Positions 27,571 through 41,883 of a stretch of DNA of 64,000 nt are shown here, piece after piece (the stretch's first letter is position 1; every line of letters begins with the position of its first letter). This DNA is from an uncultured Gammaproteobacteria bacterium (GTDB lineage Bacteria; Pseudomonadota; Gammaproteobacteria; UBA9214), in NCBI GenBank assembly GCA_963748215.1, contig CAVVHS010000006.1:32001-96000 (forward strand), read 5' to 3'. The notes beneath the pieces were generated by a model, which had not been told where the DNA came from, did not search any database, and saw nothing but the letters and a program-made list of their open reading frames with translations. The position numbers and the translations under genes were made by a program.

Positions 27571-27666
27571 AGTCGCTTTTAAGTAATAATTACGAATTCG
27601 CCATGCACAGGGGGCAAAATGACCGTAATGTAACCTGTGTTTACGGCTTCAAGAGGGGTGGCTTCT

Positions 27667-29214
27667 GTGAAACAGTACATCTGGCTTGTACCGTTAATTA
27701 TTCTGCTGACCAGTACAATCGCGTCGTGCGCACCCGAAAATGATGAGGCCGAGGTTCAGTACCAGTTACCCGCGACAGAGTTCGATCCATCCTTGCCCTG
27801 GCTGAATGTAAAGCGACCGCTGACACTGGAGGATCTGAAGGGTAAGGTTGTTATTCTTGATTTCTGGACCTACGGGTGTATCAACTGCATCCATGTCCTG
27901 GAAGACCTGCGACGCCTCGAACACAAGTACGGAAACCAGCTCGCAATAGTCGGGGTGCACACCCCGAAGTTCGATAACGAAAAAAATGTCAGCACCTTGC
28001 GCAATATCATCATTCGTTATCGGATTGAACATCCTGTCGTGAATGACGTGGAGTTCGGTCTGGCCCGCTACTATGGAATGCGTGCCTGGCCAACGCAGAT
28101 TGTCATTGACCCGCAAGGAAAGGTTGTGGGCGAGGTGCTGGGCGAAGGGAATTATGATGTACTCGACAAAGCAGTTGCAAAGCTTATCAAGCGACACGAA
28201 GGGCACATGAATCCTGAACCGCTACCCTATAGTCTGGAGCGGGACGGTTTGGCTGACTCATTGCTTGCGGCCCCCGGCAAGATTGCGGTTTCCAGCCGGC
28301 ATGTCGCTATCAGTGATACGCTGCACAACCGCGTGATTGTGGCGGATCATCAGGGGAAAATCGAGTCGATATACGGGGGTAAACACGGTGGTTTTAATGA
28401 TGGGGACGCCACCACGGTGCTGTTCTCTTCACCCCAGGGGCTGGCCTTTGCAGATGACGGGCTGTATGTGGCCGACACGGGCAACCATGCGATTCGCTAT
28501 ATCAATCTGTCACGGTCCGAGGTCGAAACCGTCGCCGGTGGCGGGGAGGTCGAGATTCCGCGTTCCGGGACATTCGATGCAAAGACAGTACGCTTGCGCT
28601 CGCCCTGGGGCCTGGCGCTTAAAGATAATCTGCTTTACATCGCGATGGCCGGCACTCATCAGATCTGGCGTCTCGACCTCGAGACGGGGCAGATCAGAAA
28701 CTACGCGGGTAGCGGGCGAGAGGGTCTAAGGGATGGGGCGTTACCTGAATCACGATTCAGCCAGCCCAGTGGACTGAGCCTGAGTGGGAAGTGGCTATAT
28801 GTCGCAGACGCCGAGGATTCCGCGATTCGCAGGATTGATGTCGAAAGCGAACGCGTGGAGACACTGGTAGGTACTGGCTTGTTTGATTTCGGGGACCGTG
28901 ACGGTTCTTTTGGCCAGGCTCTGCTGCAACATGTATTGGGAGTTGCAGCAGTAAGTGCCTCCGAGATCGTTATCGCAGATACCTATAACCACAAACTGAA
29001 GCGACTGGACCTGAACAAGCGGCGGGTTGTTTCGCTTGCAGGGAACGGTGCGCCAGGCAAAGAACGCGAAGGGTCGCAACGGGTCCAGTTGAATGAGCCC
29101 GGTGGCCTGGCGGTACTGGGCCACCACATACTCATTGCAGACACGAACAACAACCGTATCATGCAGTATGACCTTGATTCCGGTGATGTCGGCGAGTGGG
29201 TCCTGGCGCCCTGA
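27667..29214 (+). CDS. Thioredoxin-like plus NHL-repeat lipoprotein (SOQ1/NHLRC2 architecture)
   Basis: TIASC lipobox; GKVVILDFWTYGCINC, GVHTPKF, RAWPT; NHL repeats YVADTGNHAIR, IADTYNHKLK. Confidence 0.9.
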   Translation: MKQYIWLVPLIILLTSTIASCAPENDEAEVQYQLPATEFDPSLPWLNVKRPLTLEDLKGKVVILDFWTYGCINCIHVLEDLRRLEHKYGNQLAIVGVHTPKFDNEKNVSTLRNIIIRYRIEHPVVNDVEFGLARYYGMRAWPTQIVIDPQGKVVGEVLGEGNYDVLDKAVAKLIKRHEGHMNPEPLPYSLERDGLADSLLAAPGKIAVSSRHVAISDTLHNRVIVADHQGKIESIYGGKHGGFNDGDATTVLFSSPQGLAFADDGLYVADTGNHAIRYINLSRSEVETVAGGGEVEIPRSGTFDAKTVRLRSPWGLALKDNLLYIAMAGTHQIWRLDLETGQIRNYAGSGREGLRDGALPESRFSQPSGLSLSGKWLYVADAEDSAIRRIDVESERVETLVGTGLFDFGDRDGSFGQALLQHVLGVAAVSASEIVIADTYNHKLKRLDLNKRRVVSLAGNGAPGKEREGSQRVQLNEPGGLAVLGHHILIADTNNNRIMQYDLDSGDVGEWVLAP

Positions 29215-29314: not shown

Positions 29315-30385
29315 TTAGTGAGTCTGTTCCATCACTTGAAACAGATTGCGTGCGTGGTTTGTCTTCGAACAAACGGCGCATAAGTCGCAACTGCTTGTCT
29401 TTATTGAGGGTTGGTGAAACGGCACGCCGCAAGCGCGACACCGGTGCGCTGTCAAGGGCAGCTCAAACTGGACTTGTGAACTCCAGTGATCGACGCAGAC
29501 CGCTTTCTGGTCGCAAACGTCCACACAGATGTCGCAGCCTGTACAGCATTCAGCGTCAAGACGGTATTGGAGGATATCTTCACTGCTGTACAGCGCGATA
29601 GCACCTTGCGGGCAGAGCCGTGCACAGGCATTGCAACCGTTGCATTTTGTAGAATCGATGCGCGGTGAAAACGGGACGACATCGTTCCGACTTGTCCGCG
29701 GTAATAATTTCCCCGGTGGTGTAAACGCCCGTTCTTCGGCAGGCCTGGTGACGTCCATCCAAACCGTCATGGAGGAGGTCGCCGCTTTGCGGAAAAAGGC
29801 TCTGCGACTGATTGCCGGTCCGCTGAACGACTGCTTTGCGTTCTGTGATTGCTGGTTCCATTCTTCCCGATCTGCGACCTGGAGTGTTATCGTAGCCAGA
29901 TTCCGGCTTTCCAGCATGCCGGTCAACTGTTCAAGCAGATCCGGAAGCTGTAAAACACCGCCCCTGATGCAGGATGCACAGTCGCCCGTTGCGACGCATA
30001 AGCGGCGCATGCCGCTTCGGTACAGTTGCAGCAGATCCTGGAGTCCGAGCGCGTGCAGGCAGGGAATGATTCCGTCTTTGCCATTGACGCCGGCCTTTTC
30101 ACAGGCGAACAGGGCTGATGTGCGGCTTCCCGAGAGCACTGGCAAATTGGCCTGATGCGGAATGATTGCGCCTTGCGGGCAGGCGGATGCGCAAAGTCCG
30201 CAGCCGTCGCAGGCCTCGGTGTCGATGCCCAGGGATTCTTCATCCATCACCCACGCGTTCACGGGACAGGCATCCATGCAGGCGCGGCAGCTGGCTTGCG
30301 TCACTAGTGTGTGCACGCAACGTTCGGCGATGACTGTTGGCAGTGTCGCAGGCTCACAATAGGGGGCGATGATTTTATGCCACAA
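29315..30385 (-). CDS. Multi-[4Fe-4S] ferredoxin-like protein
   Basis: CRACMDACP, CDGCGLCASACP, CNGCNACARLCP, CTGCDICVDVC. Confidence 0.88.
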   Translation of the reverse strand: MWHKIIAPYCEPATLPTVIAERCVHTLVTQASCRACMDACPVNAWVMDEESLGIDTEACDGCGLCASACPQGAIIPHQANLPVLSGSRTSALFACEKAGVNGKDGIIPCLHALGLQDLLQLYRSGMRRLCVATGDCASCIRGGVLQLPDLLEQLTGMLESRNLATITLQVADREEWNQQSQNAKQSFSGPAISRRAFFRKAATSSMTVWMDVTRPAEERAFTPPGKLLPRTSRNDVVPFSPRIDSTKCNGCNACARLCPQGAIALYSSEDILQYRLDAECCTGCDICVDVCDQKAVCVDHWSSQVQFELPLTAHRCRACGVPFHQPSIKTSSCDLCAVCSKTNHARNLFQVMEQTH

Positions 30386-30430: not shown

Positions 30431-31216
30431 TTACCAGGAAGGGCCGCCTGCGCCAGGTATGAATTTCACCGGGATAGCCGGCATGTCCATCCTGGTCCGC
30501 TGCTTTTGTGCCTCGATTTCCTCAGAAGTCGGACGTGGTTCTTCCAGGATGTCAGCCAGTAGGTCGCGTAATTCCTCGCAATAGGCGCCGGTGAGCAAGT
30601 TGATGCCTGCATAGAATGGTGTCGCACAACGGCCGGCGACACGGCTGGTAAACGGCATTAGCCAGCGGAGCAGGTGTTCATCCATGAAACGTGCCGCCGT
30701 GGTGAATACTTCATCCCGCTGTTCCTCGCCAAACAGGTGGGCCAGGAACTGGAGTTGGAGAACCAGGTGGTCGTCGGCGCGCTTGCGCCAGTCCGTGGCC
30801 TCCAGTCCATGACGGTGGTAATACTCGCGGACCTCGAACATGGACTGTTGCCGTTCGAGGTGCTCTTCGTCGATCCATACCGATTCATTGGGTGAGGCCC
30901 GGTATGCGTGGGTGAGATAAATGCCCGCGTAATCCACTGCGAGTTCATCGGCATGTTGCTCATCGAGCGGGTCCGGAAGACCGGCGAGCGCTTTTTCGAT
31001 CAGCACCAGCGCCTCTTGCGCGGCCTTCGATTCAAGTTTCAGTCCCAACGCGGCCGGAAAACCGGTGTGCTTCAGTGATTGAATCAGCGAATTATCCGCT
31101 TCGGCGTCGTGCAGGATCGCGAGTTGCGCCAGATCCTGGGCGAGCGCTGCGCAGAAATCGCCGAGCAGGCTGGCTCTGTCAGGGATTGCCTGGCCGGTGA
31201 CAGCCGCGGCGCACAT
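30431..31216 (-). CDS. dmsD: TorD/DmsD-family molybdoenzyme chaperone
   Basis: SPNESVW, ADDHLVLQLQFLAHL, FMDEHLLRW, PFYAG. Confidence 0.88.
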   Translation of the reverse strand: MCAAAVTGQAIPDRASLLGDFCAALAQDLAQLAILHDAEADNSLIQSLKHTGFPAALGLKLESKAAQEALVLIEKALAGLPDPLDEQHADELAVDYAGIYLTHAYRASPNESVWIDEEHLERQQSMFEVREYYHRHGLEATDWRKRADDHLVLQLQFLAHLFGEEQRDEVFTTAARFMDEHLLRWLMPFTSRVAGRCATPFYAGINLLTGAYCEELRDLLADILEEPRPTSEEIEAQKQRTRMDMPAIPVKFIPGAGGPSW

Positions 31217-31881
31217 CAGTCGACCCTGCCTTTGCTGTGCGGGACGAAGCCGATGGAGGGCTTGGTGAGTTCCGGATCAGCCATGTTCTTTACCTGACGT
31301 ACCACTGTGTCATTGGGACCGATGGCTTTGGTCTTCAGTTCCTTTTCCCAGATCCAGTCGATGGGGCCGATATCGAGCACCCGCATCATACAGGCCATCA
31401 CGCAGTAAGGTCTGCGCCCGGCGTCTATTTCATCCACACACATATTGCATTTCTTCACCAGACCGTCCATGGGATCGTACTGCGGTGCGCCATAAGGGCA
31501 GGCGGCCTCGCAGCGCCGGCAGCCGATGCACAAGGTCGAGTCGATGTCGACGATGCCGTCCTTCTTGCGCTTGAAGATCGCACCGGTCGGACAGGCCGGC
31601 AGACAGGCGGGTTCCGCGCAATGATTGCAGGACATGTTGACCTTGTAGGCATAGACGTCCGGGTATGTCCCACCCTCTATATACTGAACACGTCTGAATC
31701 GGGGGCCGGGTGCCAGACCGTTCTTGTCCTTGCAGGCGATCTCACAGGCGCGACAGCCGATGCAGTCCACATTGTTGTGGACAAATCCCAGCTGCATATC
31801 CGGGACCACGGGTGTGTAGACTTCTTTCCTGTGACGCTTGATCGCAGCCTTGATCTTTGCCTTGTCTTTCGTTGTGGCCAT
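31216..31881 (-). CDS. dmsB: Four-cluster Fe-S subunit, DmsB-like
   Basis: CIGCRACEIACK, SCNHCAEPACLPACP, CIGCRRCEAACPY, KCNMC...CVMAC. Confidence 0.9.
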   Translation of the reverse strand: MATTKDKAKIKAAIKRHRKEVYTPVVPDMQLGFVHNNVDCIGCRACEIACKDKNGLAPGPRFRRVQYIEGGTYPDVYAYKVNMSCNHCAEPACLPACPTGAIFKRKKDGIVDIDSTLCIGCRRCEAACPYGAPQYDPMDGLVKKCNMCVDEIDAGRRPYCVMACMMRVLDIGPIDWIWEKELKTKAIGPNDTVVRQVKNMADPELTKPSIGFVPHSKGRVD

Positions 31882-31904: not shown

Positions 31905-34475
31905 TCACAGGTCACGCCGGAATACGTGTGCCCGCGAGGTGGCGAGCTGGTCCCACCCGGGACGGTGTGCAAGTTTTGTCTTGGTGATGTTTGCCAGCAC
32001 GGTGTTATAGGCAAAGGCACCCGCCGGGCTTGGCTCATCGAGGGTCAGAAAGTCCGGGTTGCCGGAGCGGTCCACGCCGTTTTCATCGAGGTCCATCCAG
32101 GCCCCTTCATAGATGATGAGCACCCCCGGCATACAACGTTCGGTGACATAGGCGGGTACAACGACCTTGCCTCGCTCATTCCAGACTTCGCAGATATCCC
32201 CCATCTTGATTCCCAGCTTTCTGGCATCCGACGCGTTTACGGTGACCTCCTGCTCGTAGGTCTCCCGCAGCCAGCTGCAATTGTTGAAAATCGAATGCGT
32301 CCGATGGCGGGGATGCGGCGAGATCAGGTGGAACGGGTATTTGTCTGTTTTCGGACTGTTCAGTGATTCCCATGGCTCGATCCACTTCGGGATAGCCGGG
32401 ATATGATAGCCGTACATGGTCTTGGTCCAGTCTGTTATCTGTGCAAGCTGGGTTGAGAGGATCTCGATCTTCCCGGAGGGGGTCTGGAAGGGCAATCCTT
32501 TCTCAATCTGGTCCTGAAACGCGACATGTGGTCGGGACAGTTTGAACTTGTAGACACCTCTGCGCTTGAATTCATCCCACGGCATGGTCACGCCCTGATG
32601 GGCCATGACCTTGTGCTCCCACCAGTCGCGCAAATAGGCCTCGTCGACATCATCCTCATACTGGAAGTAGTTACGCGTAGCCTTGGGATTGAAGTCGCGG
32701 CCAAATTCAGGGCTTATTCGATAGGCCAGTTCAGTGAAGATCTGGAGGTCGGTCTTGCTTTCCCCCAGCGGTTCGATGACTTTGGGACGATGGATGTAGT
32801 AATGCCCCTTGTACCACGGCAATGCAGCGTCGTGCCGCTCGAAATGTGTCGCCACCGGCAGCAGCACATCGGCCCAAAGCCCGGACGGTGTAATGGTGGA
32901 ATCCATGCACACCACCAGCTCCATCTTCTTGATGGCCTGCAGCTCCTTGTTGATATTGGTGAGCTGGTTCAACCAGTCGGAACCTTGCCAGAAGATACCG
33001 CGGATATTGGGGATCTGTCCGTCAGTTGCATCCTCGCGTGGCCACAGGCCGATCTCTTCGCGCTTGACATTGGGATAGTTCAAAACACAGTGCGCCCAGC
33101 GATCGGACTTGATCGACTGGAACCAGATGTTCGAGTACTTGTCGTAAGGGTAAGCGACAGCCTCCGCGTGCCAGGCTTTGCCCACACCTTCGGCGCAACC
33201 ACCCAGGATGCCGATATTGCCGGTCATGGCCTGCAGTGCCGCTGCCATACGGTTGTATTGTTCGCCGTAGGCGTTACGGCCCGGCGCCCACGAAGCCTTG
33301 AGCGCAGCCGGCTTAGTGGTCGCGTACATATGAGCGAGCTTCTTGATGTCAGCGGCTTCCACGCCGCAAATCCCTGCAGCCCATTCAGGCGTCTTGGGCT
33401 GGCCGTCGGAGTTGCCCAGGATGTAATCCTTGAACGACTCCTTGCCTCTGGCCCAGTCCGGCATGGTACCGGCGTCCATGCCCTGCACGAATCGATTGAT
33501 GAAGGACTGGTCCTGGAGATTGCTGGTGAATATATAGTGCGCCATGCCCGCCAGCATGGCCGCATCGGTATTGGGCCGGATGGGAATCCACCACGCGTCA
33601 TATACCGCGGCCGAATCCGTATATTGCGGGTCGATCAGCACGAACTTGCAGCCTTGCTGTTTGGCCATGCGCATATAATAGAACGTATTGCCGCCATGGA
33701 AGGTATAGGCCGGGTTCCAGCCCCACATGATGATCAGCTTTGAGTATGCAAAGACGTCGTCCTCGTTGCCGTCCTCAATTGTGCCGAAAGTCGTGCGCGA
33801 GCTGAAGGTGGTGCCTTGATAGGAGGGCACTGACCATGAGTTGGTACGGCATCCGAACATTCCGAGGAAACGGGCAAGCAATCCTTCGATCTGGTCGGAT
33901 TTATGCAAAACACCATAAGAGGCGCCCGCATAGCTCTGGTCGAGGAGGGCCGTGGGCCCATACTTGTTCTTGATCTCAACCATCTTGGTGGCAACATGAT
34001 CGAGTGCGGTATCCCAGGAGACACGTTTGAATCTGCCTTCGCCACGTTCCCCGACGCGCATCATGGGATACAGCAGGCGCTCCGCCGAGTAGATGCGCTG
34101 GCGGTATGAGCGGCCGCGCAGACAGGCCCTTAACTGGGGTTCTTCAAATGTGTCCTTGCCGTGTTGACCGTCTGCCTGATAGCTTCCGTCGTCGGTCGAC
34201 AGGCGGACGATGACATCACCCTTTTTGTGGGCCACCAGCATGTGACGGGAACCGCAATTGTGTGCGCAACTGGTGACTACGGTTTCGAGTTCATCATCAC
34301 GTGGATAGGGTTCGTAAGCAAAGGCCCTGGCCTGTTTCGCAGTACGCAGGTCAATAAGGCTGCCGCCGGTCAGGGTCGCGGCGCCAGCAGCAGAGGTCTT
34401 CAGGAATGACCGTCGGGTCATGTTAAGTCGTGATGCGAGCGCCTTCAGTTTATCAGGATCCATGTAGATACCCAT
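31905..34475 (-). CDS. dmsA: Tat-exported DMSO-reductase-family (DmsA-like) Mo-bisPGD catalytic subunit
   Basis: TRRSFLK; CAHNCGSRH...RACLRGRS; PIRPNTDAAM; ADVLLPVAT; RTHSIF; substrate not established. Confidence 0.88.
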   Translation of the reverse strand: MGIYMDPDKLKALASRLNMTRRSFLKTSAAGAATLTGGSLIDLRTAKQARAFAYEPYPRDDELETVVTSCAHNCGSRHMLVAHKKGDVIVRLSTDDGSYQADGQHGKDTFEEPQLRACLRGRSYRQRIYSAERLLYPMMRVGERGEGRFKRVSWDTALDHVATKMVEIKNKYGPTALLDQSYAGASYGVLHKSDQIEGLLARFLGMFGCRTNSWSVPSYQGTTFSSRTTFGTIEDGNEDDVFAYSKLIIMWGWNPAYTFHGGNTFYYMRMAKQQGCKFVLIDPQYTDSAAVYDAWWIPIRPNTDAAMLAGMAHYIFTSNLQDQSFINRFVQGMDAGTMPDWARGKESFKDYILGNSDGQPKTPEWAAGICGVEAADIKKLAHMYATTKPAALKASWAPGRNAYGEQYNRMAAALQAMTGNIGILGGCAEGVGKAWHAEAVAYPYDKYSNIWFQSIKSDRWAHCVLNYPNVKREEIGLWPREDATDGQIPNIRGIFWQGSDWLNQLTNINKELQAIKKMELVVCMDSTITPSGLWADVLLPVATHFERHDAALPWYKGHYYIHRPKVIEPLGESKTDLQIFTELAYRISPEFGRDFNPKATRNYFQYEDDVDEAYLRDWWEHKVMAHQGVTMPWDEFKRRGVYKFKLSRPHVAFQDQIEKGLPFQTPSGKIEILSTQLAQITDWTKTMYGYHIPAIPKWIEPWESLNSPKTDKYPFHLISPHPRHRTHSIFNNCSWLRETYEQEVTVNASDARKLGIKMGDICEVWNERGKVVVPAYVTERCMPGVLIIYEGAWMDLDENGVDRSGNPDFLTLDEPSPAGAFAYNTVLANITKTKLAHRPGWDQLATSRAHVFRRDL

Positions 34476-34487
34476 TCTGTTCGATGA

Positions 34488-35297
34488 TCACTGTGCTGGT
34501 TGTACGGATTCCCCGGCTATGCCGCCAAGAAAACGTGCCTCCGATTCGCTGGGCCGGTCCTTTGCCCAGTCAGGAATCTGCTCGGCGATACCGGGCCAGC
34601 TATGACGCGGGAAAGGGAAACTGGTCCGGAACCATGCGCGTCCGCCGTGGCAGCCAAAACACACATCTGCATCTTCCTGGCCAGCCTGTTCGATGGCTTC
34701 GGCATTGAGGAAATTAACCTGGTGGCGATGGGTACGGATCGCAATATGGCAGGTCAGACATGAATCACCGAAGGTTTCGCTGACTTCGAGCCACGGGCCG
34801 GGCAGCCCCATGAGCTGGTAATCAAACTTTCCATGACACATCAGGCAGGTCTTCGGATTGACCACCTTGCGCAGCGTGAAGCCGGCATCGTTGCTGGTTG
34901 GCGGGACTGGTGCCTCCTCGCGAGGGTCGTGGCCCTGATGACAGGTGTTGCACTTCATGTCCATCACCCGTTTCGCCAGCGGCGTTACCAGGTGACGCCG
35001 GTGAAAAGTCTCCTGTGGTCCTGCATAGGTGTTCAGAGTCTGGTACCACGCCAGCGCTTCACTGGCCGTAACCCCGGCCGGTGACTGTTCCAGCACCTTG
35101 CGTTCCAGTATTTCCTGATGGCAACCCAGGCACTGTTCATCGCTTGTGCTATCGATTGCCGGTTTAAAATGGCTGGGATCCCAGCGCGCGGCTTCATATG
35201 CCTCTGTATCAGGATCGGCTGCCCGGACATCTATCCAGGCAGTAATCGTGCTTACCATAGCCAGCAGCAGAAAGATGGTTACCTTGACAGTTTGCAT
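34488..35297 (-). CDS. Periplasmic pentahaem c-type cytochrome
   Basis: Signal peptide; five CxxCH (CLGCH, CNTCH, CLMCH, CLTCH, CFGCH). Confidence 0.9.
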   Translation of the reverse strand: MQTVKVTIFLLLAMVSTITAWIDVRAADPDTEAYEAARWDPSHFKPAIDSTSDEQCLGCHQEILERKVLEQSPAGVTASEALAWYQTLNTYAGPQETFHRRHLVTPLAKRVMDMKCNTCHQGHDPREEAPVPPTSNDAGFTLRKVVNPKTCLMCHGKFDYQLMGLPGPWLEVSETFGDSCLTCHIAIRTHRHQVNFLNAEAIEQAGQEDADVCFGCHGGRAWFRTSFPFPRHSWPGIAEQIPDWAKDRPSESEARFLGGIAGESVQPAQ

Positions 35298-35388
35298 CAA
35301 TCCCGTGTCCTTGAGAAAAGACAAATCAGTTCATGGCGAAAGAGATCAGAGGGTACGTCCCTGTACCCCCAGGATCCCTATTGAACCC

Positions 35389-36741
35389 TCACTCGCCCTT
35401 GGGTGGCGTCCATTCTTTCTTGCCTTCCATGCCCTGCATTCCGGACATACCGCCCATGCCTGACATGCCGGACATACCGCCCATGCCTGACATTCCGGAC
35501 ATACCGCCCATACCTGACATTCCGGACATACCGCCCATACCTGACATTCCAGACATACCACTGGCCGGATAGAAGTAGATCTGGCCCTGGGGTGTGATCT
35601 GGAAATAGCCGGACATACCGCCCATGCCACCCATGCCTCCCATGCCGGACATACCGCCCATGCCGGACATGCCGCCCATGCCGGACATGCCGCCCATGCC
35701 GGACATGCCGCCCATGCCGGACATACCGCCCATGCCACTCATACCGGACATGCCGCTAGGTACCCAGACCCACTGGCCGCCCATGCCTTGCATACCGGAC
35801 ATACCGCCCATGCCTGACATTCCGGACATACCGCCCATGCCTGACATGCCGGACATACCGCCCATGCCGGACATGCCACCCATGCCTGACATGCCGGACA
35901 TACCACCCATGCCGCTCATGCCTGACATGCCGCCCATACCGGACATCCCGCTCATACCACTGGCCGGATAGAAGTAGATCTGGCCCTGGGGTGTGATATT
36001 GAAGTAGCCGGACATACCGCCCATGCCACCCATGCCTTGCATGCCGGACATACCGCCCATGCCTGACATTCCGGACATACCGCCCATGCCACCCATGCCT
36101 TGCATACCGGACATGCCACCCATGCCGCCCATGCCTGACATACCACCCATACCGCCCATGCCACTCATGCCGGACATGCCGCCCATGCCGCTCGGCACAT
36201 AGACCCACTGGCCACTCATGCCTTGCATGCCACCCATACCGCCCATGCCTGACATACCACCCATGCCGCCCATGCCGGACATGCCACCCATGCCACCCAT
36301 GCCTGACATGCCGGACATACCACCCATGCCGCTCATGCCTGACATGCCGCCCATACCGGACATCCCGCTCATACCACTGGCCGGATAGAAGTAGATCTGG
36401 CCCTGGGGTGTGATATTGAAGTAGCCGGACATACCGCCCATGCCACCCATGCCTTGCATGCCGGACATACCACCCATGCCTTGCATGCCGGACATGCCGC
36501 CCATGCCTTGCATGCCGGACATGCCGCCCATGCCTTGCATGCCGGACATACCGCCCATGCCTTCCATGCCGGACATACCTTCCATACCGGACATACCTTC
36601 CATACCGGACATGCCTTCCATACCCGACATGCCGGCCATACCCGCCTCAGCGGAATGGACTTGCGGTGCACCGATCAGAGATCCCATTACGGTAACCAGT
36701 CCGATGATTTTCTTGAAGCGATACATTCGTGACATATTCAT
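35389..36741 (-). CDS. Secreted methionine-rich (Gly-Met-X)n repeat protein, 450 aa
   Basis: GAGGAG/AAGGAG RBS; signal peptide ending VHSA; GMS/GMG/GMQ/GME repeats with synonymous codon variation; operon strand. Confidence 0.85.
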   Translation of the reverse strand: MNMSRMYRFKKIIGLVTVMGSLIGAPQVHSAEAGMAGMSGMEGMSGMEGMSGMEGMSGMEGMGGMSGMQGMGGMSGMQGMGGMSGMQGMGGMSGMQGMGGMGGMSGYFNITPQGQIYFYPASGMSGMSGMGGMSGMSGMGGMSGMSGMGGMGGMSGMGGMGGMSGMGGMGGMQGMSGQWVYVPSGMGGMSGMSGMGGMGGMSGMGGMGGMSGMQGMGGMGGMSGMSGMGGMSGMQGMGGMGGMSGYFNITPQGQIYFYPASGMSGMSGMGGMSGMSGMGGMSGMSGMGGMSGMGGMSGMSGMGGMSGMSGMGGMSGMQGMGGQWVWVPSGMSGMSGMGGMSGMGGMSGMGGMSGMGGMSGMGGMSGMGGMGGMGGMSGYFQITPQGQIYFYPASGMSGMSGMGGMSGMSGMGGMSGMSGMGGMSGMSGMGGMSGMQGMEGKKEWTPPKGE

Positions 36742-36778
36742 ATCTTTCTCCTTCTCCTCAATAATATTCTTCTGAGTT

Positions 36779-36830
36779 AGACTGCGGTTATCCGCAGTCT
36801 GGTTTGGCACCGGCCTGGCAAACAGGCCGG
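36779..36830 (-). promoter_or_regulatory. Twin stem-loops in the leader of the Met-rich gene
   Basis: agactgcgg-ttat-ccgcagtct and ccggcctg-gcaaa-caggccgg. Confidence 0.5.
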
Positions 36831-36879
36831 GGTTTCTTTGCGCCCGCGTAGCGGGTGAGGCTGAGCAGCCAGGCGCCCT

Positions 36880-37185
36880 TCAGTCACCGGTATACCAACC
36901 ACGCATGTCATAATGGCCCGTCATGCCTGGATGGATAAACGGCGTATACCAGTTACCCTGGTCCTCGAGAAAACCGAGGCTGTTGGGGTAGGGCTTGCTT
37001 ACGCCTGTCAGTGCTTGCTGATACCAGACGTCACCCTTGATCACCTGCTTGATGACAGGTGCGTTGTTTGGACGCTCATAAGGTGTGAGACCGGCTATTG
37101 GATACTCTGCCTGCGCAACGCTCCATGCACTGAGCAGTGCAGCCGTAAGTCCGACGGACACTTTTCCCTGTCGATGATGTTTCAA
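36880..37185 (-). CDS. Small secreted Tyr/Pro/Trp-rich protein, first gene of the operon
   Basis: GGAGGAG then TTG start; signal peptide ...VAQA; YPIAGLTPYERP...DQGNWYTPFIHPGMTGHYDMRGW. Confidence 0.75.
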   Translation of the reverse strand: MKHHRQGKVSVGLTAALLSAWSVAQAEYPIAGLTPYERPNNAPVIKQVIKGDVWYQQALTGVSKPYPNSLGFLEDQGNWYTPFIHPGMTGHYDMRGWYTGD

Positions 37186-37276
37186 CTCACTCCTCCCCAC
37201 GAGTGAAAGTCACAAGATCATACCGCGCTTTGATTTTCAAAATGCGGTTTGCCTTTAACTCCCTCAAATCTAATGT

Positions 37277-37292
37277 AGCAAACTCTGAGCCA
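37277..37292 (-). promoter_or_regulatory. sigma54 -24/-12 promoter
   Basis: Minus strand TGGCTC-AGAGT-TTGCT: one mismatch to TGGCAC-N5-TTGCW, correct spacing, about 90 bp upstream of the first gene. Confidence 0.75.
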
Positions 37293-37570: not shown

Positions 37571-38374
37571 CTAAAATAAAGGCAACAGCTCGCCGTTCCG
37601 CTTGTTAATGATCAATTCATTACGCAACCTGTAGGGTGGTATTTGGTCAACAATCTTGACAAGATAAATCCAGTTGATGTTGCGAATACCGCCCACGCCA
37701 AGCTCTGTATATCCGGACTCCAAACGCCAGTTTTCACTGATCCGCCATGCCTCTTCGATGGTGTTTACCGGCAACTTTACCCCTGCCGTGAACAGGAATT
37801 CCTGTTGTTCTTCGGCACAATCCGCTTTGGTTGCGGTGGGAAGTGGAAGGGGGTGCGCTGGCGCCAGGAGATGTAAAGCGTTGCTGCCTTCCTGTACCAG
37901 ATTCCAGCTGTAAGCCTCTAACAATTCATGTAATTGCTGCATATCTTCAGATGACACCGTCAATGTGATCGATACAGGTGCCGGTTCCTGTGCCGGTGGA
38001 GTGTCCCGTAATGGCAATAAAAGGGTGGAACCATCAGGGGCGCGCTCTACGCGCCAGCCACGCGTTTCCAGCAGGCTGCGCAGGCTTTCAAAATCGCCGG
38101 TCATCGATGGCTGCGGCACAGTGACATCGTCTGCCTCCGCTGCCTGTGGAGTGTCTCGTAACGGAAATAACAGGGTGGAACCATCAGGGGTACGCTCTAT
38201 ACGCCAGCCCCGCGTTTCCAGCAGGCTGTGCAGGCTTTCAAAATCGCCGGTCATCGATGGCTGCGGTGCAGCGACATCGCTCGCCTCCGCATTCCATGCC
38301 CATATGGCATATCCCGTCAAAGCAAGCACCAGAACCCATCGGAAAGCCTCGTGCCACCGGATCAGAATTTTCAT
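37571..38374 (-). CDS. Secreted hypothetical protein with a 50-aa tandem duplication
   Basis: Signal peptide; SLLETRGWRxERxPDGSTLLxPL twice (150-bp period, 37998-38290). Confidence 0.75.
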   Translation of the reverse strand: MKILIRWHEAFRWVLVLALTGYAIWAWNAEASDVAAPQPSMTGDFESLHSLLETRGWRIERTPDGSTLLFPLRDTPQAAEADDVTVPQPSMTGDFESLRSLLETRGWRVERAPDGSTLLLPLRDTPPAQEPAPVSITLTVSSEDMQQLHELLEAYSWNLVQEGSNALHLLAPAHPLPLPTATKADCAEEQQEFLFTAGVKLPVNTIEEAWRISENWRLESGYTELGVGGIRNINWIYLVKIVDQIPPYRLRNELIINKRNGELLPLF

Positions 38375-38629
38375 GTTATGCTCCTCAATACATTAATAAT
38401 AATTAGTTAATCGACCGCGCAGGGTATGTGCATGGCGACTTTGTTATCGACCTGGGTAGCAGGTGTCGGGCGCTCGTTATGGACGGAGCAATTGTCATGC
38501 CAGTTGCCAGGTACAAGGCAGGCATCCAAATTGAGTCGCTGCGGAACCTGACTCACACACTGGTGTATTTTCCGGTTGAGGAGGTGTCCGCTTTGGGGCT
38601 GCCAGTATCGCAGTAGCTTTTGATGTTAG

Positions 38630-40534
38630 ATGAATATAATGCCCACAGCGACCACACGTTGGATAAAGACGAGTCTCAGCCGCAAGTTTCTGTCAGGCGT
38701 CGCTGCAGGGCTGGTCGTGACCTCGCTTGTCTTCCTGTTGTTGTTTATGGCCATGTACCGCGCCCAGTTGCAGTCAGAACGCATCCAGGCCGTAGAAGAT
38801 ATTAATCGGCTGCTGCAGACGTCTCTGGAAAACGCAATGCTCAAGCGGGATCTGGACGGACTGCGCGACATCGTTGCCAGACTCGGTCAACAGGACGGCA
38901 TTGTTGGGGTAATGATCGTCAATCCGGACGGTGAAGTGCGTTTTGCCGCTGATCAGAACATGCTGGGGCACCAATTTTCCAGGGAAACGGATTCAGCCTG
39001 CCGCGTATGTCACTTGAGCGGAAGCATGCCTGACGACACCACTGTTTTTACCGTAAACGAACGGGGGCAGGAGGTCTTGCGCAGCGTTAACCCCGTGCAG
39101 AACAAGGCAGCCTGTATCGGTTGCCATGGCCCGATAGAGACTCATCCTGTCAACGGCGTCCTGTTTGTCGACTACGATGCATTGCCCATTCGTCGTCATG
39201 CGCAACAAACGACTTTGTTACTCATGGGATCCGGTGCCCTGGTGGTGTTGATCACGTTAACGGGTGGCTGGTGGTTTATGCGCCGATTCGTTCTGCAACC
39301 GGTACAGCAGTTGTGCAAAGCCAGCCAGGCGATGTCAGAAGGACAACTTGATGCGCGTGTCCACTTGCCCGTAACAGATGAACTGGGAGAGCTCGGCCGC
39401 ACTTTCAACGTGATGGGAGAACGTCTGGAGCGGAGTATGCGTGAATTACAGGAGAAAGATTTATTCCTGCAAGGCGTTGTGGATGCCATTCCAGACGGTA
39501 TTCGCGTGATAGACGATCAGTTCGCAATTGTGCTGTCCAATCAGGCCTATCGCCAGCAGCTGGGTCTTGCAGAGGAAGAAGAAAGCGCCAGGCCGTGTTA
39601 CCTTTCCAGCCACAAGCGTTATCAACCCTGCCCGCCAACACTGGTACGCTGTCCGCTTCACGAGATCCTGAAAAACGGCGAGCCTGTGAAAGTGCTCGAT
39701 CAGTTTATTGGTGCTGATGGTCGGCCGTTTTCCGTGGAAGTGGTTGCTGCACCCATGCAGATGCCTGTCGGGGATGACTCCAGGACCCTGATCGTGGAAT
39801 CAGTGCGTAATCTCGAAGAACATGTTCTGTTCTCACAGGAACAACGACTTTCAGAACTGGGACGACTCGCGGCTGGTGTGGCCCATGAAATTCACAACCC
39901 GCTGACATCTATACGCCTTGCACTGGACTCGATGGTGAAAGCGGGGAAGCAGGCTGATGGGAACCTTTCCAGGGCATGGGACTATCTTGAGGTTATTGAT
40001 TCACAGGTCGATCAGTGCATCAGCATAACAGAGCGACTCCTGAAAATGAGCCTGTCTCCTGGGCAGCGCCAGGTTGTGGATATGAATGTCGCGGTTGGCG
40101 AGGTTATATCACTGGTTGCATGGGAAGCCGAGAACAAGAGTGTTTCAATCCATCAAAAACTCGATCCAGGCAACCCGCGGGTCATTGCGACTGAAAGCGA
40201 ATTTCGTACTGTGATCCTGAATCTGGTGCAGAATGCCTTTCATGCAATGCCGGATGGTGGACGGATCGACATCTGCACCCGGAAGAATAACGGAAACGTA
40301 ATACTCATCGTCGGGGATACGGGGGTGGGCATTCTCCCTGAAGACCGGCCGCATATCTTCGAGCCTTTCTTCAGTCGCCGTGCTGACGGCGTGAATGGCA
40401 CAGGGCTCGGCTTATCCATTCTTCGGGCAGTTGTCGACCACTATGGCGGACGCATCGAGGTAGAGAGCCAGCGCGGTCAGGGTAGCCGATTCACCGTATT
40501 ATTTCCCGATGCCGATAGCGAGGGAAGGTACTAG
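38630..40534 (+). CDS. Sensor histidine kinase with periplasmic dihaem-c domain, HAMP, PAS, HisKA and HATPase
   Basis: Two TMs flanking CRVCH and CIGCH; DELGEL; AHEIHNPL; NLVQNA; DTGVGI; GTGLGL. Confidence 0.92.
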   Translation: MNIMPTATTRWIKTSLSRKFLSGVAAGLVVTSLVFLLLFMAMYRAQLQSERIQAVEDINRLLQTSLENAMLKRDLDGLRDIVARLGQQDGIVGVMIVNPDGEVRFAADQNMLGHQFSRETDSACRVCHLSGSMPDDTTVFTVNERGQEVLRSVNPVQNKAACIGCHGPIETHPVNGVLFVDYDALPIRRHAQQTTLLLMGSGALVVLITLTGGWWFMRRFVLQPVQQLCKASQAMSEGQLDARVHLPVTDELGELGRTFNVMGERLERSMRELQEKDLFLQGVVDAIPDGIRVIDDQFAIVLSNQAYRQQLGLAEEEESARPCYLSSHKRYQPCPPTLVRCPLHEILKNGEPVKVLDQFIGADGRPFSVEVVAAPMQMPVGDDSRTLIVESVRNLEEHVLFSQEQRLSELGRLAAGVAHEIHNPLTSIRLALDSMVKAGKQADGNLSRAWDYLEVIDSQVDQCISITERLLKMSLSPGQRQVVDMNVAVGEVISLVAWEAENKSVSIHQKLDPGNPRVIATESEFRTVILNLVQNAFHAMPDGGRIDICTRKNNGNVILIVGDTGVGILPEDRPHIFEPFFSRRADGVNGTGLGLSILRAVVDHYGGRIEVESQRGQGSRFTVLFPDADSEGRY

Positions 40535-40536
40535 TT

Positions 40537-41883
40537 ATGATAAAAACCATCCTGGTTGTCGAAGACGACAAGATTCTAAACCGGCTCATTGCCGAACACA
40601 TCGAACGCATAGGCTATGCGGTTCGGGCTGCGTACACCTGGGCAGAGGCCGATCAATATCTGGCGCACCATGAACCGGATCTCGTTTTGATGGATGTGCG
40701 ACTGCCGGACGCGAACGGGATGGAACTGCTTCCCCGGTTGGCAGGTGTGCAACCCGTCATTGTTGTCACTGCATACGGATCGGTGAAGGATGCCGTGAAA
40801 GCCATGCATGCAGGGGTCGAAGATTATCTGACCAAACCCATCAGCCTGGATGAATTGGAAATCGTGGTAAAGAGGACGCTGGATAATATCGCCATGCGAG
40901 CGGAACATCAATTTTGCATACAGCGGATGCAGGCCAGTGAAGGCAAAAAGCTCATGATTGGAAACAGCCCGGCCATGCAGGAGGTCCATCGCCTGATTGA
41001 TGCAGTTGCCGGTACCGATATGACCGTGCTTATTCAAGGAGAAAGTGGTGTCGGTAAGGAGCTCGTGGCGAAGACAGTCCATGAGCGCAGTAACCGGTCA
41101 AAATGTAATTTCGTTGCAGTGGACTGCTGCACCCTTCCGGAAAAACTGTTCGAATCCGAATTGTTCGGACACGAACGCGGTGCCTTCACCAGTGCTGACC
41201 GGCAAAAGAAAGGACTTATCGAGGGCGCCGGTGGCGGAAGCCTTTTTCTGGATGAGATAGGCGAAATCGAAATGGCGGTGCAGGCCAAACTGCTGCGCGT
41301 GCTCGAAACCGGGGTGTTTCGCCGGGTCGGAGGAACGAAGGATTTACGCGCCAATGTGCGGATCGTGGCGGCCACGAACAGCGACCTGGAAAAGGCCAGC
41401 CGGGAAGGAAGCTTCCGTTCCGACCTTTACTACCGCCTGAGTGCTTTTATCATTACAGTTCCTCCGTTACGCGAACGCCGTGAGGATATACCCGAACTCG
41501 TTGATTATTTTATAGGTAGTCGCGAATTTTCACGCCGCATCAATACCACGGTATCTCGTAGTGCGATGCGCGCCTTACTGGCCTATGACTGGCCAGGCAA
41601 TGTCAGGGAACTGAAAAACACAATCGAACGCGCCATCATACTTTCCTGGCAGACCAGGAAGATACGTCCAGAACATCTTGCGCCTATGATTGCCAGTACC
41701 GAGTCGTCAAGTTCGGTGACATTGACCTTCGATCATGAGCCGAGTCTTGCCGAGGTTGAGGGAAAGTATCTGCAGATGCTGCTGACGAAGTACTCGGGAC
41801 ATCGTTTGGACATAGCAAAAAGGCTGGGTGTCAGTGAAAGAAATATTTATCGATTGATCGATAAACATCAGCTAAAGAGCTGA
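40537..41883 (+). CDS. sigma54-dependent response regulator (NtrC family)
   Basis: Receiver domain VEDD/MDVRLP; GESGVGKE; ESELFGHERGAFTSA; FLDEIGE; WPGNVREL; HTH. Confidence 0.95.
   Translation: MIKTILVVEDDKILNRLIAEHIERIGYAVRAAYTWAEADQYLAHHEPDLVLMDVRLPDANGMELLPRLAGVQPVIVVTAYGSVKDAVKAMHAGVEDYLTKPISLDELEIVVKRTLDNIAMRAEHQFCIQRMQASEGKKLMIGNSPAMQEVHRLIDAVAGTDMTVLIQGESGVGKELVAKTVHERSNRSKCNFVAVDCCTLPEKLFESELFGHERGAFTSADRQKKGLIEGAGGGSLFLDEIGEIEMAVQAKLLRVLETGVFRRVGGTKDLRANVRIVAATNSDLEKASREGSFRSDLYYRLSAFIITVPPLRERREDIPELVDYFIGSREFSRRINTTVSRSAMRALLAYDWPGNVRELKNTIERAIILSWQTRKIRPEHLAPMIASTESSSSVTLTFDHEPSLAEVEGKYLQMLLTKYSGHRLDIAKRLGVSERNIYRLIDKHQLKS

Follow-up and report, generated by a model that had tools for sequence, protein, structure and literature searches.

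A (Gly-Met-X)n protein encoded beside a DmsA/YnfE-type reductase, a candidate methionine/methionine sulfoxide partner of the enzyme

The operon and its signals

The window (the whole 64,000-nucleotide stretch of DNA analysed here, from an uncultured gammaproteobacterium) carries on its minus strand an operon with the gene order 106-residue secreted protein, GM protein, pentahaem cytochrome c, DmsA/YnfE-type enzyme, DmsB, TorD chaperone and polyferredoxin. The second of these genes encodes a protein built of (Gly-Met-X)n runs, in the following called the GM protein, and the operon has a sigma-54-type promoter. The architecture described in an earlier reading, made from the sequence only, stands; the operon with a DmsAB-type S-oxide reductase was overlooked there. 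The genes of the operon and its neighbours are as follows.

36880 to 37200, minus strand: 106-residue secreted Pro/aromatic-rich protein, first gene of the operon, no known family in Pfam, NCBIfam or the Atlas
35389 to 36741, minus strand: GM protein, with signal peptide, six (Gly-Met-X)n runs, three hairpin motifs, two Trp motifs and an EWTPP tail
34488 to 35324, minus strand: pentahaem c-type cytochrome, 278 residues, five CxxCH, N-terminal hydrophobic anchor or signal (Pfam, NCBIfam)
31905 to 34475, minus strand: catalytic subunit of a DmsA/YnfE-type Mo-bisPGD reductase, Tat-exported (Pfam, NCBIfam, structure relatives)
31216 to 31881, minus strand: DmsB-type four-cluster Fe-S subunit (TIGR02951, 192 bits)
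30431 to 31216, minus strand: TorD/DmsD-type Tat proofreading chaperone (Pfam, NCBIfam)
29315 to 30385, minus strand: 29-Cys polyferredoxin without signal peptide or TM segment, present in 56 of 80 loci
37571 to 38374, minus strand: 267-residue secreted protein with two internal repeats of about 40 residues, no known family, homologue in 22 of 80 loci
38630 to 40534, plus strand: sensor histidine kinase, periplasmic domain between two TM segments, then HAMP, PAS, HisKA and HATPase
40537 to 41883, plus strand: sigma-54-dependent response regulator, with receiver, AAA+ sigma-54 interaction and HTH_8 domains (Pfam, NCBIfam)
27637 to 29214, plus strand: thioredoxin-fold and NHL-repeat protein, a recurrent neighbour (16 of 80 loci)

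The periplasmic domain of the sensor kinase contains two CxxCH haem-c motifs, at residues 124 and 162, between TM-like segments at 19-37 and 193-211. The response regulator was found by tblastn in 23 of the 80 loci, where many contigs end early. The polyferredoxin has a weak NapF-type match among many ferredoxin models and may act in maturation or electron transfer. Among 2466 candidates, 1997 are relatives of the pentahaem cytochrome at E<=1e-5. The 106-residue protein shows 19 invariant columns in an alignment of 35 sequences, and an Atlas search with it returned unnamed clusters only. Its AlphaFold2 model (pLDDT 65.7, pTM 0.37) was too poor for a fold search, and a complex prediction with residues 96-192 of the GM protein, run without controls, scored 0.00. 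At one locus (L067) this protein bears a Met-rich tail of its own.

Three putative signals accompany the genes.

37277 to 37292, minus strand: sigma-54 promoter-like site TGGCTC-N5-TTGCT, 5' of the 106-residue protein gene
38487 to 38502, minus strand: sigma-54 promoter-like site TGGCAT-N5-TTGCT, 5' of the 267-residue protein gene
35349 to 35370, minus strand: GC-rich stem-loop with a T-run behind it, 19 nt past the stop codon of the GM gene; it resembles a terminator or may be a stabilising hairpin within the operon

Since the sigma-54 pattern is not above chance in the window as a whole (36 occurrences against 43 expected), only the position of the sites and their recurrence across loci count. 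A near-consensus site lies within 300 bp 5' of the 106-residue protein gene in 24 of 38 loci, the window included, and a similar one stands 5' of the homologue of the 267-residue protein in 10 of 22. The site at 37277 to 37292 is probably the operon promoter. In many loci the 80 nt that follow the stop codon of the GM gene form a more stable fold than shuffled sequences (median z -1.97), with z <= -2 in 34 of 71. Rfam gave no match on the window.

The GM protein and its gene

Counted from the ATG at 36741, which follows directly on a GGAG-rich Shine-Dalgarno sequence, the GM protein has 450 residues, including 169 Gly (38%), 117 Met (26%) and 63 Ser. Only about 3% are charged (eight E, five K, two R), and the composition is near-neutral, Gly-rich and of low complexity. 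The secreted protein has a mass of approximately 40 kDa. Its parts are the following.

36652 to 36741, minus strand: Sec-type signal peptide, residues 1-30, putative cleavage after VHS; read from the sequence, homologous N-termini exist
36376 to 36426, minus strand: hairpin motif 1, GYFNITPQGQIYFYPAS, residues 106-122, predicted strands 106-110 and 116-120
36190 to 36213, minus strand: Trp motif 1, GQWVYVPS, residues 177-184, a motif of the family
35959 to 36009, minus strand: hairpin motif 2, residues 245-261, inside a 183-nt exact duplicate of the surroundings of motif 1
35755 to 35778, minus strand: Trp motif 2, GQWVWVPS, residues 322-329
35560 to 35610, minus strand: hairpin motif 3, GYFQITPQGQIYFYPAS, residues 378-394

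The six runs described after the signal peptide are indeed there, with 24, 18, 20, 20, 16 and 15 triplets as assembled (runs of 15-24), and together they hold 113 perfect G-M-X triplets. X is S in 55, G in 43, Q in nine, E in five and A in one of them; none of the 113 contains Pro, as had been claimed. The figure of "roughly 110 Met" given by the sequence-only reading suits the 113 in the triplets, and four more in the signal peptide make up the whole-protein count of 117. The linkers are GYF(N/Q)ITPQGQIYFYPAS, three times, alternating with GQWV(Y/W)VPS, twice, and the C-terminal tail is GKKEWTPPKGE, which confirms the alternating aromatic motifs YF(N/Q)ITPQGQIYFYPAS and QWV(Y/W)VPS and the EWTPP ending of the same reading.

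Ser is encoded by both TCN (51) and AGY (12) codons and Gly by GGC (105), GGT (53), GGA (9) and GGG (2), and the match at the DNA level within the arrays is only 63-69% (periods 9, 18 and 27) while the protein periodicity is perfect. These results support the proposal that selection acts on the protein and that slippage alone does not account for the array. Across 3,569 triplets in the related loci X is S in 1899 or G in 1316 cases, with Ser again from TCN and AGY, and an independent assembly (L008) has the identical layout of three hairpins and two Trp motifs.

That the array is a mis-assembled repeat or a non-coding slippage product is highly improbable. The 183-nt exact internal duplicate would suit such an origin, as would the frameshift in the assembly of one orthologue (G042) and the fact that no short-read contig spanning the GM repeat was found, so that the repeat number rests on the assembly. 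Against it, GM genes in the same position and frame, with the same signal peptide and motifs, are found in 40 loci of independent assemblies, the residues of the orthologues are kept where synonymous sites have diverged, and contigs of RNA libraries from two studies cover the unique 5' end of the gene and its junction with the upstream gene. These contigs were read as cover only; their depths cannot rank genes and uncovered parts were not interpreted. Because the same architecture is found in other genomes, the array is neither chance nor mere slippage, and judged by these comparisons the GM gene encodes a real secreted protein selected at the protein level.

In about 28 of the 80 loci the contig starts inside the GM repeat. 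Lys and Arg are absent from the mature chain up to the C-terminal KK, so trypsin would give nothing detectable, and with tryptic sites almost absent the lack of GM peptides would be an unfair test of the reality of the gene. A repeat that breaks assemblies, combined with the near lack of tryptic sites, is what standard metagenomics and proteomics would tend to miss.

AlphaFold2 predicts three beta-hairpins at the YF..ITPQGQIYFYP motifs (pLDDT 64-85 in the hairpin blocks), in agreement with the hairpin-like character suggested for them before. All GM runs stay below pLDDT 50 without packing, the pTM is 0.26, and the protein is predicted to be largely disordered; AlphaFold2 is a weak judge of polyglycine/PPII structures. 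Bundles of the snow-flea antifreeze type consist of Gly-rich tripeptide repeats arranged as antiparallel PPII helices of matched length. The GM protein shares the tripeptide repeat, but such bundles, as proposed earlier, find no support in the unpacked model or in the run lengths, which resemble each other here (15-24) and are very unequal among orthologues (e.g. 19 and 38 flanking a Trp motif and 12 in the last run).

A collagen triple helix was rejected, given the lack of Pro in the triplets and of any helix in the AlphaFold2 model. Gly at every third residue gives nominal matches to collagen-like profiles: PF01391 scores 30.8 bits with no stretch passing on its own, and the NCBIfam models Lcl and SclB score 49.7 and 48.2 bits against cut-offs of 500 and 325. 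The match is compositional, and Pfam found only collagen-type compositional matches on variant GM proteins as well, including those with a globular insert.

The protein could instead be a PPII-rich gel, condensate or coat, cross-linked by the hairpins, in which the reductase would be concentrated or a hydrophobic sulfur species (DMS, S0, polysulfide) retained, in the style of a sulfur-globule envelope. We regard this as improbable. It would suit the near-neutral, Gly-rich, low-complexity composition, the alternation of hairpin and Trp motifs, which would be expected if they connected the runs at the two ends of an up-down array, and the carriers, which are mostly sulfur-storing bacteria, with Tyr/Gly/Met-rich variants in Thiomargarita. 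The lack of packing speaks against a matrix, as do adjoining runs that differ up to three-fold in orthologues and an enzyme far closer to DmsA (601 bits) than to polysulfide/thiosulfate reductases (215 bits). With sulfur-globule envelope proteins (Sgp), Gly/Tyr-rich secreted proteins with repeats that sit on the globules, only secretion, repetitiveness and sulfur-oxidising hosts are shared. The C-terminal (GGM)n tails of GroEL, reported to form PPII helices (PMC12571646), also favour a matrix and have the three-residue Gly/Met periodicity in common with the GM protein; they are 13 residues long, cytoplasmic and part of a chaperonin, and bear no resemblance to it in length, location or context.

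Conservation of the locus and type of the reductase

Eighty related loci were found by way of the cytochrome. The DmsA-like gene lies directly downstream of the cytochrome gene in 79 of them, and the enzyme is 72-98% identical across these 79. The GM gene was tallied in the 41 loci whose upstream sequence measures 1.5 kb or more, and here a GM-rich ORF on the same strand stands directly upstream of the cytochrome gene in 40. The only exception, L082, lacks the enzyme too; wherever the enzyme is encoded and the sequence reaches far enough upstream, the GM gene is retained (40 of 40). The carriers include many sulfur-oxidising Gamma- and Betaproteobacteria, among them Sedimenticola, Thiodiazotropha, tubeworm symbionts and Thiomargarita. 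One natural fusion protein (P0010) unites a homologue of the pentahaem cytochrome with a cytochrome c domain and a GM tract.

Hairpin-type motifs are encoded in 45 loci that the protein search had missed, and the idea of a genus-restricted family was dropped. The search with the whole GM protein in a collection of 5.8 billion gave tract-level matches only among those listed and no hairpin-bearing relative, probably due to word saturation, with candidates capped at 8000, or to uncalled genes. A region-restricted search gave one tract-level match and is uninformative, since a query of 40 residues cannot reach significance. Exact sequence look-ups matched in 0 of 20 cases; nothing follows from them, as the cytochrome of the window was itself absent. 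In the library of papers searched, none describes the GM protein family or its motifs.

The best NCBIfam model for the enzyme is by far dmsA_ynfE (TIGR02166), with 601.5 bits, below the curated cut-off of 777.7, and its best solved relatives are DorA DMSO reductases (1eu1, E 1.7e-75). Pfam recognises a TAT_signal. Ser218 aligns with DorA Ser147, the Mo ligand, and a Tyr aligns with DorA Tyr114, the active-site Tyr; the Ser and Tyr segments are kept in 70 and 65, respectively, of 71 full-length orthologues. The FS0 motif is C-x3-C-x3-H in all 71 and not the four-Cys form.

With the S-oxide (and selenate) reductases DmsABC, DorCA and YnfEF the system shares the best match to dmsA_ynfE, the Tat signal, the Ser and Tyr positions, DmsB and a TorD-type chaperone. 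It differs from them in the score below the cut-off, in the FS0 motif, and in that no gene for a DmsC-like anchor is present at the locus, where the 278-residue pentahaem cytochrome stands instead. Two extra secreted proteins, one of them the GM protein, are encoded at the head of the operon, and canonical Dms operons are not known to carry a GM gene. The substrate of the enzyme could be a small S-/N-oxide or an oxyanion.

A possible methionine sulfoxide cycle

Because the GM gene shares a conserved operon with the reductase gene, the GM protein is probably the Met/Met-sulfoxide partner of the enzyme. As our main reading we propose, with a probability of roughly 0.45, a high-capacity periplasmic Met/Met-sulfoxide buffer that is recycled by the co-encoded S-oxide reductase. 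The 113 exposed thioethers, flanked by Gly and by Ser/Gly, would take up two-electron oxidants that come from outside (oxygen- or host-derived) or are made by the enzyme itself, and the reductase would turn the sulfoxides back to Met. Electrons would probably pass from the quinol pool by way of the cytochrome and DmsB to the reductase. The Gly/Ser context and the disorder may keep each Met(O) able to enter the enzyme funnel, the hairpins and the C-terminal Trp motif might serve as points of docking or self-association, and the stem-loop 3' of the GM gene could let the cell make more GM than enzyme transcript.

This proposal draws on the gene linkage, the P0010 fusion, the Met-rich tail at L067, the type of the enzyme, the protein-level selection, the disorder and the sigma-54 sites (24 of 38 loci), together with precedents. 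In unfolded casein, DorA is reported to reduce protein-bound MetO at about 45,000-90,000 M-1 s-1 (PMC7402097), and in Azospira suillum the Met-rich periplasmic protein MrpX is described as scavenging hypochlorite and being regenerated by a Mo enzyme (PMC4436054). Several points speak against it. The coupling of the GM protein and the enzyme is read from gene order alone. GM tracts are found on periplasmic proteins of unrelated kinds as well (NapC/NirT cytochromes, CcoP, a PQQ dehydrogenase, OmpA-like) and on CusB adaptors and a multicopper oxidase, and a tie between the tract and S-oxide reduction is therefore not a given; a metagenome scan with the GM-tailed NapC/NirT cytochromes matched 203 pattern stretches, none of them confirmed. 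The enzyme scores 601 against 777.7 bits, which leaves room for a small S-/N-oxide or oxyanion as substrate, and MrpX differs strongly in composition and partner enzyme. Furthermore, DorA-type enzymes reportedly reduce the S-sulfoxide diastereomer only (PMC7402097), in which case half of the chemically formed MetO would stay unrepaired. Linkage of MsrA to the locus was ruled out, as it is adjacent in only 2 of 80 loci and in G042.

The true substrate of the reductase could be small (DMSO, another S-/N-oxide, iodate, chlorate or selenate). The GM protein would then be a mere shield: it would mop up reactive by-products in the vicinity of the enzyme and afterwards be degraded or restored by other Msr enzymes. 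This is unlikely, although we rank it first among the alternatives. DmsAB-type enzymes are reported to turn iodate into hypoiodous acid and H2O2, as described for DmsEFAB (PMC9732548), and to reduce bromate (PMC9468665); such products would equally feed the buffer proposed above. MrpX is reported to accompany perchlorate respiration (PMC4436054), and MsrA homologues occur elsewhere in the genome (C9, C8, C3). A shield alone leaves the retention of the GM gene in 40 of 40 enzyme-bearing loci unexplained, and no halogen-related gene was recognised in the 30 most recurrent clusters when the first residues of their representatives were read.

A further alternative is that the protein binds periplasmic Cu(I)/Ag(I) or similar ions, thereby guarding the Fe-S/Mo enzyme and the haems or buffering copper, as the sequence-only reading had also considered; we find this slightly less probable still than a matrix. 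Every GM run places Met at i and i+3, a continuous MxxM array with the spacing of known Cu(I) Met motifs, and eight of the 40 tract-level matches listed are of copper type (seven CusB-type RND adaptors and one multicopper oxidase), whose GM tails the tract resembles. The idea loses ground in the gene neighbourhood: no cop/cus/pco-type family was found by Pfam in the 30 scanned ORFs of the window, and none is evident among the representatives of the 30 gene clusters that recur most often in the 80 loci. In addition, His and Asp as co-ligands are missing from the GM tract, regulation is by a haem-sensor kinase and a sigma-54 activator, unlike the CopRS/CueR type, and copper is scarce in sulfidic habitats. 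CusB, CueO/PcoA-type oxidases and Ctr1 share the i, i+3 spacing, but there short Met-rich Cu(I) segments belong to folded proteins with His/Asp nearby and copper operons around them, whereas here a whole protein of 113 triplets lies in a reductase operon.

Returning to the recycled buffer, the closest parallel is MrpX with MsrP(YedY)/MsrQ, where, as here, a secreted Met-rich protein and a periplasmic sulfoxide-reducing molybdoenzyme are reported in one operon (PMC4436054). Both would follow one proposed logic, in which Met is oxidised sacrificially and then recycled by the enzyme. That report gives MrpX as a small protein in which Met makes up 20% and charged residues 44% (PMC4436054), against 450 residues, 26% Met and about 3% charge in the GM protein, which has in addition 38% Gly, the strict triplet periodicity and the hairpin motifs. 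The partner enzymes are MsrP of the sulfite-oxidase family with MsrQ in the one case and DmsAB of the DMSO-reductase family with the pentahaem cytochrome in the other, and control is by SigF/NrsF and by a sigma-54 two-component system, respectively. Among the marks of the MrpX type, the GM protein has the signal peptide and a Met content of at least about 20%, and lacks the high charge and the MsrP/MsrQ-SigF/NrsF operon. It appears as if the GM system is best read as functionally like MrpX-MsrP and built from unrelated parts.

The conserved poly-Met neighbour is a testable candidate for what such a DmsA-like enzyme works on or with. If redox cycling holds, the MrpX principle would extend to another enzyme family and to a protein with about 100 reactive sites. 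At oxic-sulfidic interfaces and in animal symbioses this would matter for oxidant defence and possibly for energy storage. It is also conceivable, though doubtful and a shade less so than a matrix, that the protein is a protein-bound sulfoxide "battery", in which about 110 Met per chain are charged by oxidant and discharged by the DmsAB-type enzyme as respiratory acceptor; oxidation could, moreover, make the chain pass from a condensed to a dissolved state or back. Bacteria commuting between oxic and sulfidic layers would in that case possess an organic store of oxidant in addition to nitrate and sulfur, and the "DMSO reductase" of lucinid symbionts would be a poly-methionine-sulfoxide reductase. 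Circumstantial support for the recycled buffer comes from Ca. Thiodiazotropha, where a "DMSO reductase"-like gene ranks with the aerobic oxidase among the genes of highest reported expression (PMC6872982); its substrate is described as unverified (PMC8090883). Five Thiodiazotropha loci carry the operon analysed here, and the link between the expressed gene and the GM operon is circumstantial.

The repetitive protein and its operon

The sequence-only reading had described a secreted protein with six Gly-Met-X runs and aromatic linkers on the minus strand, and this open reading frame is real, with runs, linkers and signal peptide all present. The GM gene (window 35389-36741) encodes 450 residues (Gly 169, Met 117, Ser 63) from an ATG at 36741 that is preceded by a GGAG-rich ribosome-binding site. 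The protein has an N-terminal Sec-type signal peptide, six runs that together comprise 113 G-M-X triplets (24, 18, 20, 20, 16 and 15 per run), three GYF(N/Q)ITPQGQIYFYPAS linkers (hairpin motif) alternating with two GQWV(Y/W)VPS linkers (Trp motif), and the tail GKKEWTPPKGE. In the DNA, Tandem Repeats Finder detected 9-, 18- and 27-nt periods whose matches reach only 63-69%; in the protein, every one of the 113 triplets keeps its G and M, and both Ser codon families occur, as had been claimed. A 183-nt exact duplicate (residues 91-151 equal 230-290, offset 417 nt) shows that a higher-order unit was duplicated or underwent conversion recently. The neighbouring genes are as follows.

Genes around the GM gene in the window
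37571-38374, minus strand, upstream: 267-aa secreted protein, no known family
Upstream: 106-aa secreted protein, no known family
Downstream, same strand: 278-aa cytochrome with five CxxCH motifs
Downstream, same strand: 856-aa Tat-exported molybdopterin enzyme, best model dmsA_ynfE
Downstream, same strand: DmsB-type Fe-S subunit
Downstream, same strand: TorD-type chaperone
Downstream, same strand: 29-Cys polyferredoxin
Divergent: histidine kinase, periplasmic domain with two CxxCH motifs
Divergent, beside the kinase: sigma-54 activator

The DmsA-like enzyme scored 601.5 bits against dmsA_ynfE, under the cut-off of 777.7, and its closest solved relatives are the DorA DMSO reductases. Aligned to 1eu1, its Ser218 pairs with Ser147, the Mo ligand of DorA; a Tyr pairs with Tyr114 and Gly replaces Trp116. 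The N-terminal Fe-S (FS0) motif is C-x3-C-x3-H (window about 34250-34280, residues about 69-78) in 71/71 full-length orthologues (L006-L085); its His stands at the place of a third Cys in DmsA-type enzymes.

Conservation, selection and expression

Of 2466 candidates for relatives of the pentahaem cytochrome, 1997 reach E <= 1e-5, and scanning one genome per species gave 80 loci. Carriers include Sedimenticola, Ca. Thiodiazotropha, tubeworm and lucinid symbionts, Thiomargarita, Thioploca, Arenicellales, Competibacteraceae and Betaproteobacteria. A DmsA-like gene (identity 72-98%) lies directly downstream of the cytochrome in 79/80 loci. Upstream sequence of 1.5 kb or more is available at 41 loci, and in 40 of them a same-strand GM-rich ORF immediately precedes the cytochrome; the sole exception, L082, also lacks the DmsA-like enzyme. 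We regard it as very unlikely that the GM gene is an artefact. About 28 of the 80 loci lie on contigs that start within it, and L008, which comes from an independent assembly, has the window's layout of three hairpin and two Trp motifs.

Within the organism's order the cytochrome was found in only 2/53 other genomes, with the GM gene ahead of it in both, one copy being frameshifted in the assembly and the other cut by a contig end. The frameshift (L004 9333-10809, genome G042) splits the gene into two overlapping ORFs; it could be genuine or could stem from misassembly of the repeat. The window has a G+C content of 56%, compared with roughly 60% across the contigs of the genome, and the operon occurs in only 3/54 genomes of the order; both observations fit horizontal acquisition.

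The X position in 3,569 triplets across loci is mostly Ser (1899, through TCN and AGY codons) or Gly (1316). The hairpin motif occurs 77 times in 45 loci; since the search pattern fixed 12 positions, invariance at these is circular. Its free positions vary little and its four-fold sites are well mixed, as at Gly9 (GGC 29, GGT 19, GGA 19, GGG 10).

Of 38 loci, 24, including the window (37277-37292), have a near-consensus sigma-54 site no more than 300 bp upstream of the 106-aa gene; we estimate the chance expectation at about 0.005 per sequence. Downstream of the GM stop codon lies a GC-rich stem-loop with a T-run, and in many loci the 80 nt past the stop fold more stably than mononucleotide shuffles (median z -1.97; z <= -2 in 34/71 loci). 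Two perfect stem-loops, including one at 36810-36830, lie in the spacer between the 106-aa and GM genes (36742-36879, minus strand). RNA-library contigs from two studies, whose presence is not proof of transcription, match parts of the GM gene, among them the unique 5' end (36625-36747); one piece of 471 nt joins the 106-aa gene to the GM start. These contigs differ from the window at a few positions and thus derive from relatives. In a DNA run from a further study, exact pieces matched both gene ends. Among the RNA- and DNA-library contigs matched to the gene, none spanned the repeat.

Possible functions

The most economical reading makes the GM protein a Met/MetO buffer that the co-encoded enzyme recycles, and we give it a probability of roughly 45%. 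Three precedents are published: MrpX is paired with a Mo sulfoxide reductase (PMC4436054), a DMSO-reductase-family enzyme reduces protein-bound MetO, best in unfolded protein (PMC7402097), and DmsAB-type enzymes release hypoiodous acid and H2O2 (PMC9732548). In Ca. Thiodiazotropha a "DMSO reductase"-like gene, which may or may not be that of this operon, ranks among the most highly expressed, together with an aerobic oxidase (PMC6872982); the substrate of its enzyme is unverified (PMC8090883). The literature searched contained no description of the GM family. In function the system would be the MrpX principle in a new form, with components that are unrelated.

A protein that acts as a shield and is not recycled by the co-encoded enzyme seems an improbable alternative, though the foremost of the others. 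A Cu(I) sponge is kept as a reading because 8 of the 40 tract-level matches listed are copper proteins, and we consider it the least probable of these functions. A structural matrix is doubtful to nearly the same degree. In the AlphaFold2 model (21 sequences; mean pLDDT 42, pTM 0.26) the three hairpin motifs, earlier suspected of being hairpin-like, are indeed predicted as beta-hairpins (blocks of pLDDT 64-85); none of the GM runs and neither Trp motif reaches 50.

Family plan and related proteins

After the signal peptide, the family plan places four runs separated in turn by a hairpin motif, a Trp motif and a second hairpin motif, and it closes with a C-terminal GW(R/K/N) or xW(T/N/K)PP. In L010-L012 and L015 a globular insert replaces the hairpins, Thiomargarita variants have Tyr/Gly/Met-type repeats, and some Betaproteobacteria have acidic forms. 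Two Sedimenticolaceae loci (L014 1501-2484, L021 1498-2319) encode, some 4 kb upstream of the main GM protein, a second one that is hairpin-free and has GMNGMS- or GMSGMG-type repeats. GM tracts also form tails on NapC/NirT tetrahaem cytochromes, PQQ dehydrogenase, CcoP, DsrE-like and OmpA-like proteins; the set of GM-tract proteins is P0004, P0019, P0027, P0028, P0002, P0005, P0003, P0001 and P0010, the last a fusion of GM tract, cytochrome c domain and pentahaem cytochrome homologue. The window's own genome encodes three further secreted Met-rich repeat proteins (plus strand of contigs C7 from 235401, C6 from 855679 and C6 from 514465). In two of them a helical head rich in Met and Gln precedes repeats of the MMGGPGGPGGPQG type; the third has SPWSGMSGM-type repeats and is related to the protein P0033.

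The 267-aa protein has two repeats of about 40 aa (three in G042) before a C-terminal domain and recurs in 22/80 loci. A monohaem class I cytochrome c of about 127 aa lies between torD and the polyferredoxin gene in 26/80 loci (for example L063 5544-5984) and is absent there in the window. In L067 the 106-aa homologue (11946-12428) sits after torD and has its own Met-rich C-terminal tail.
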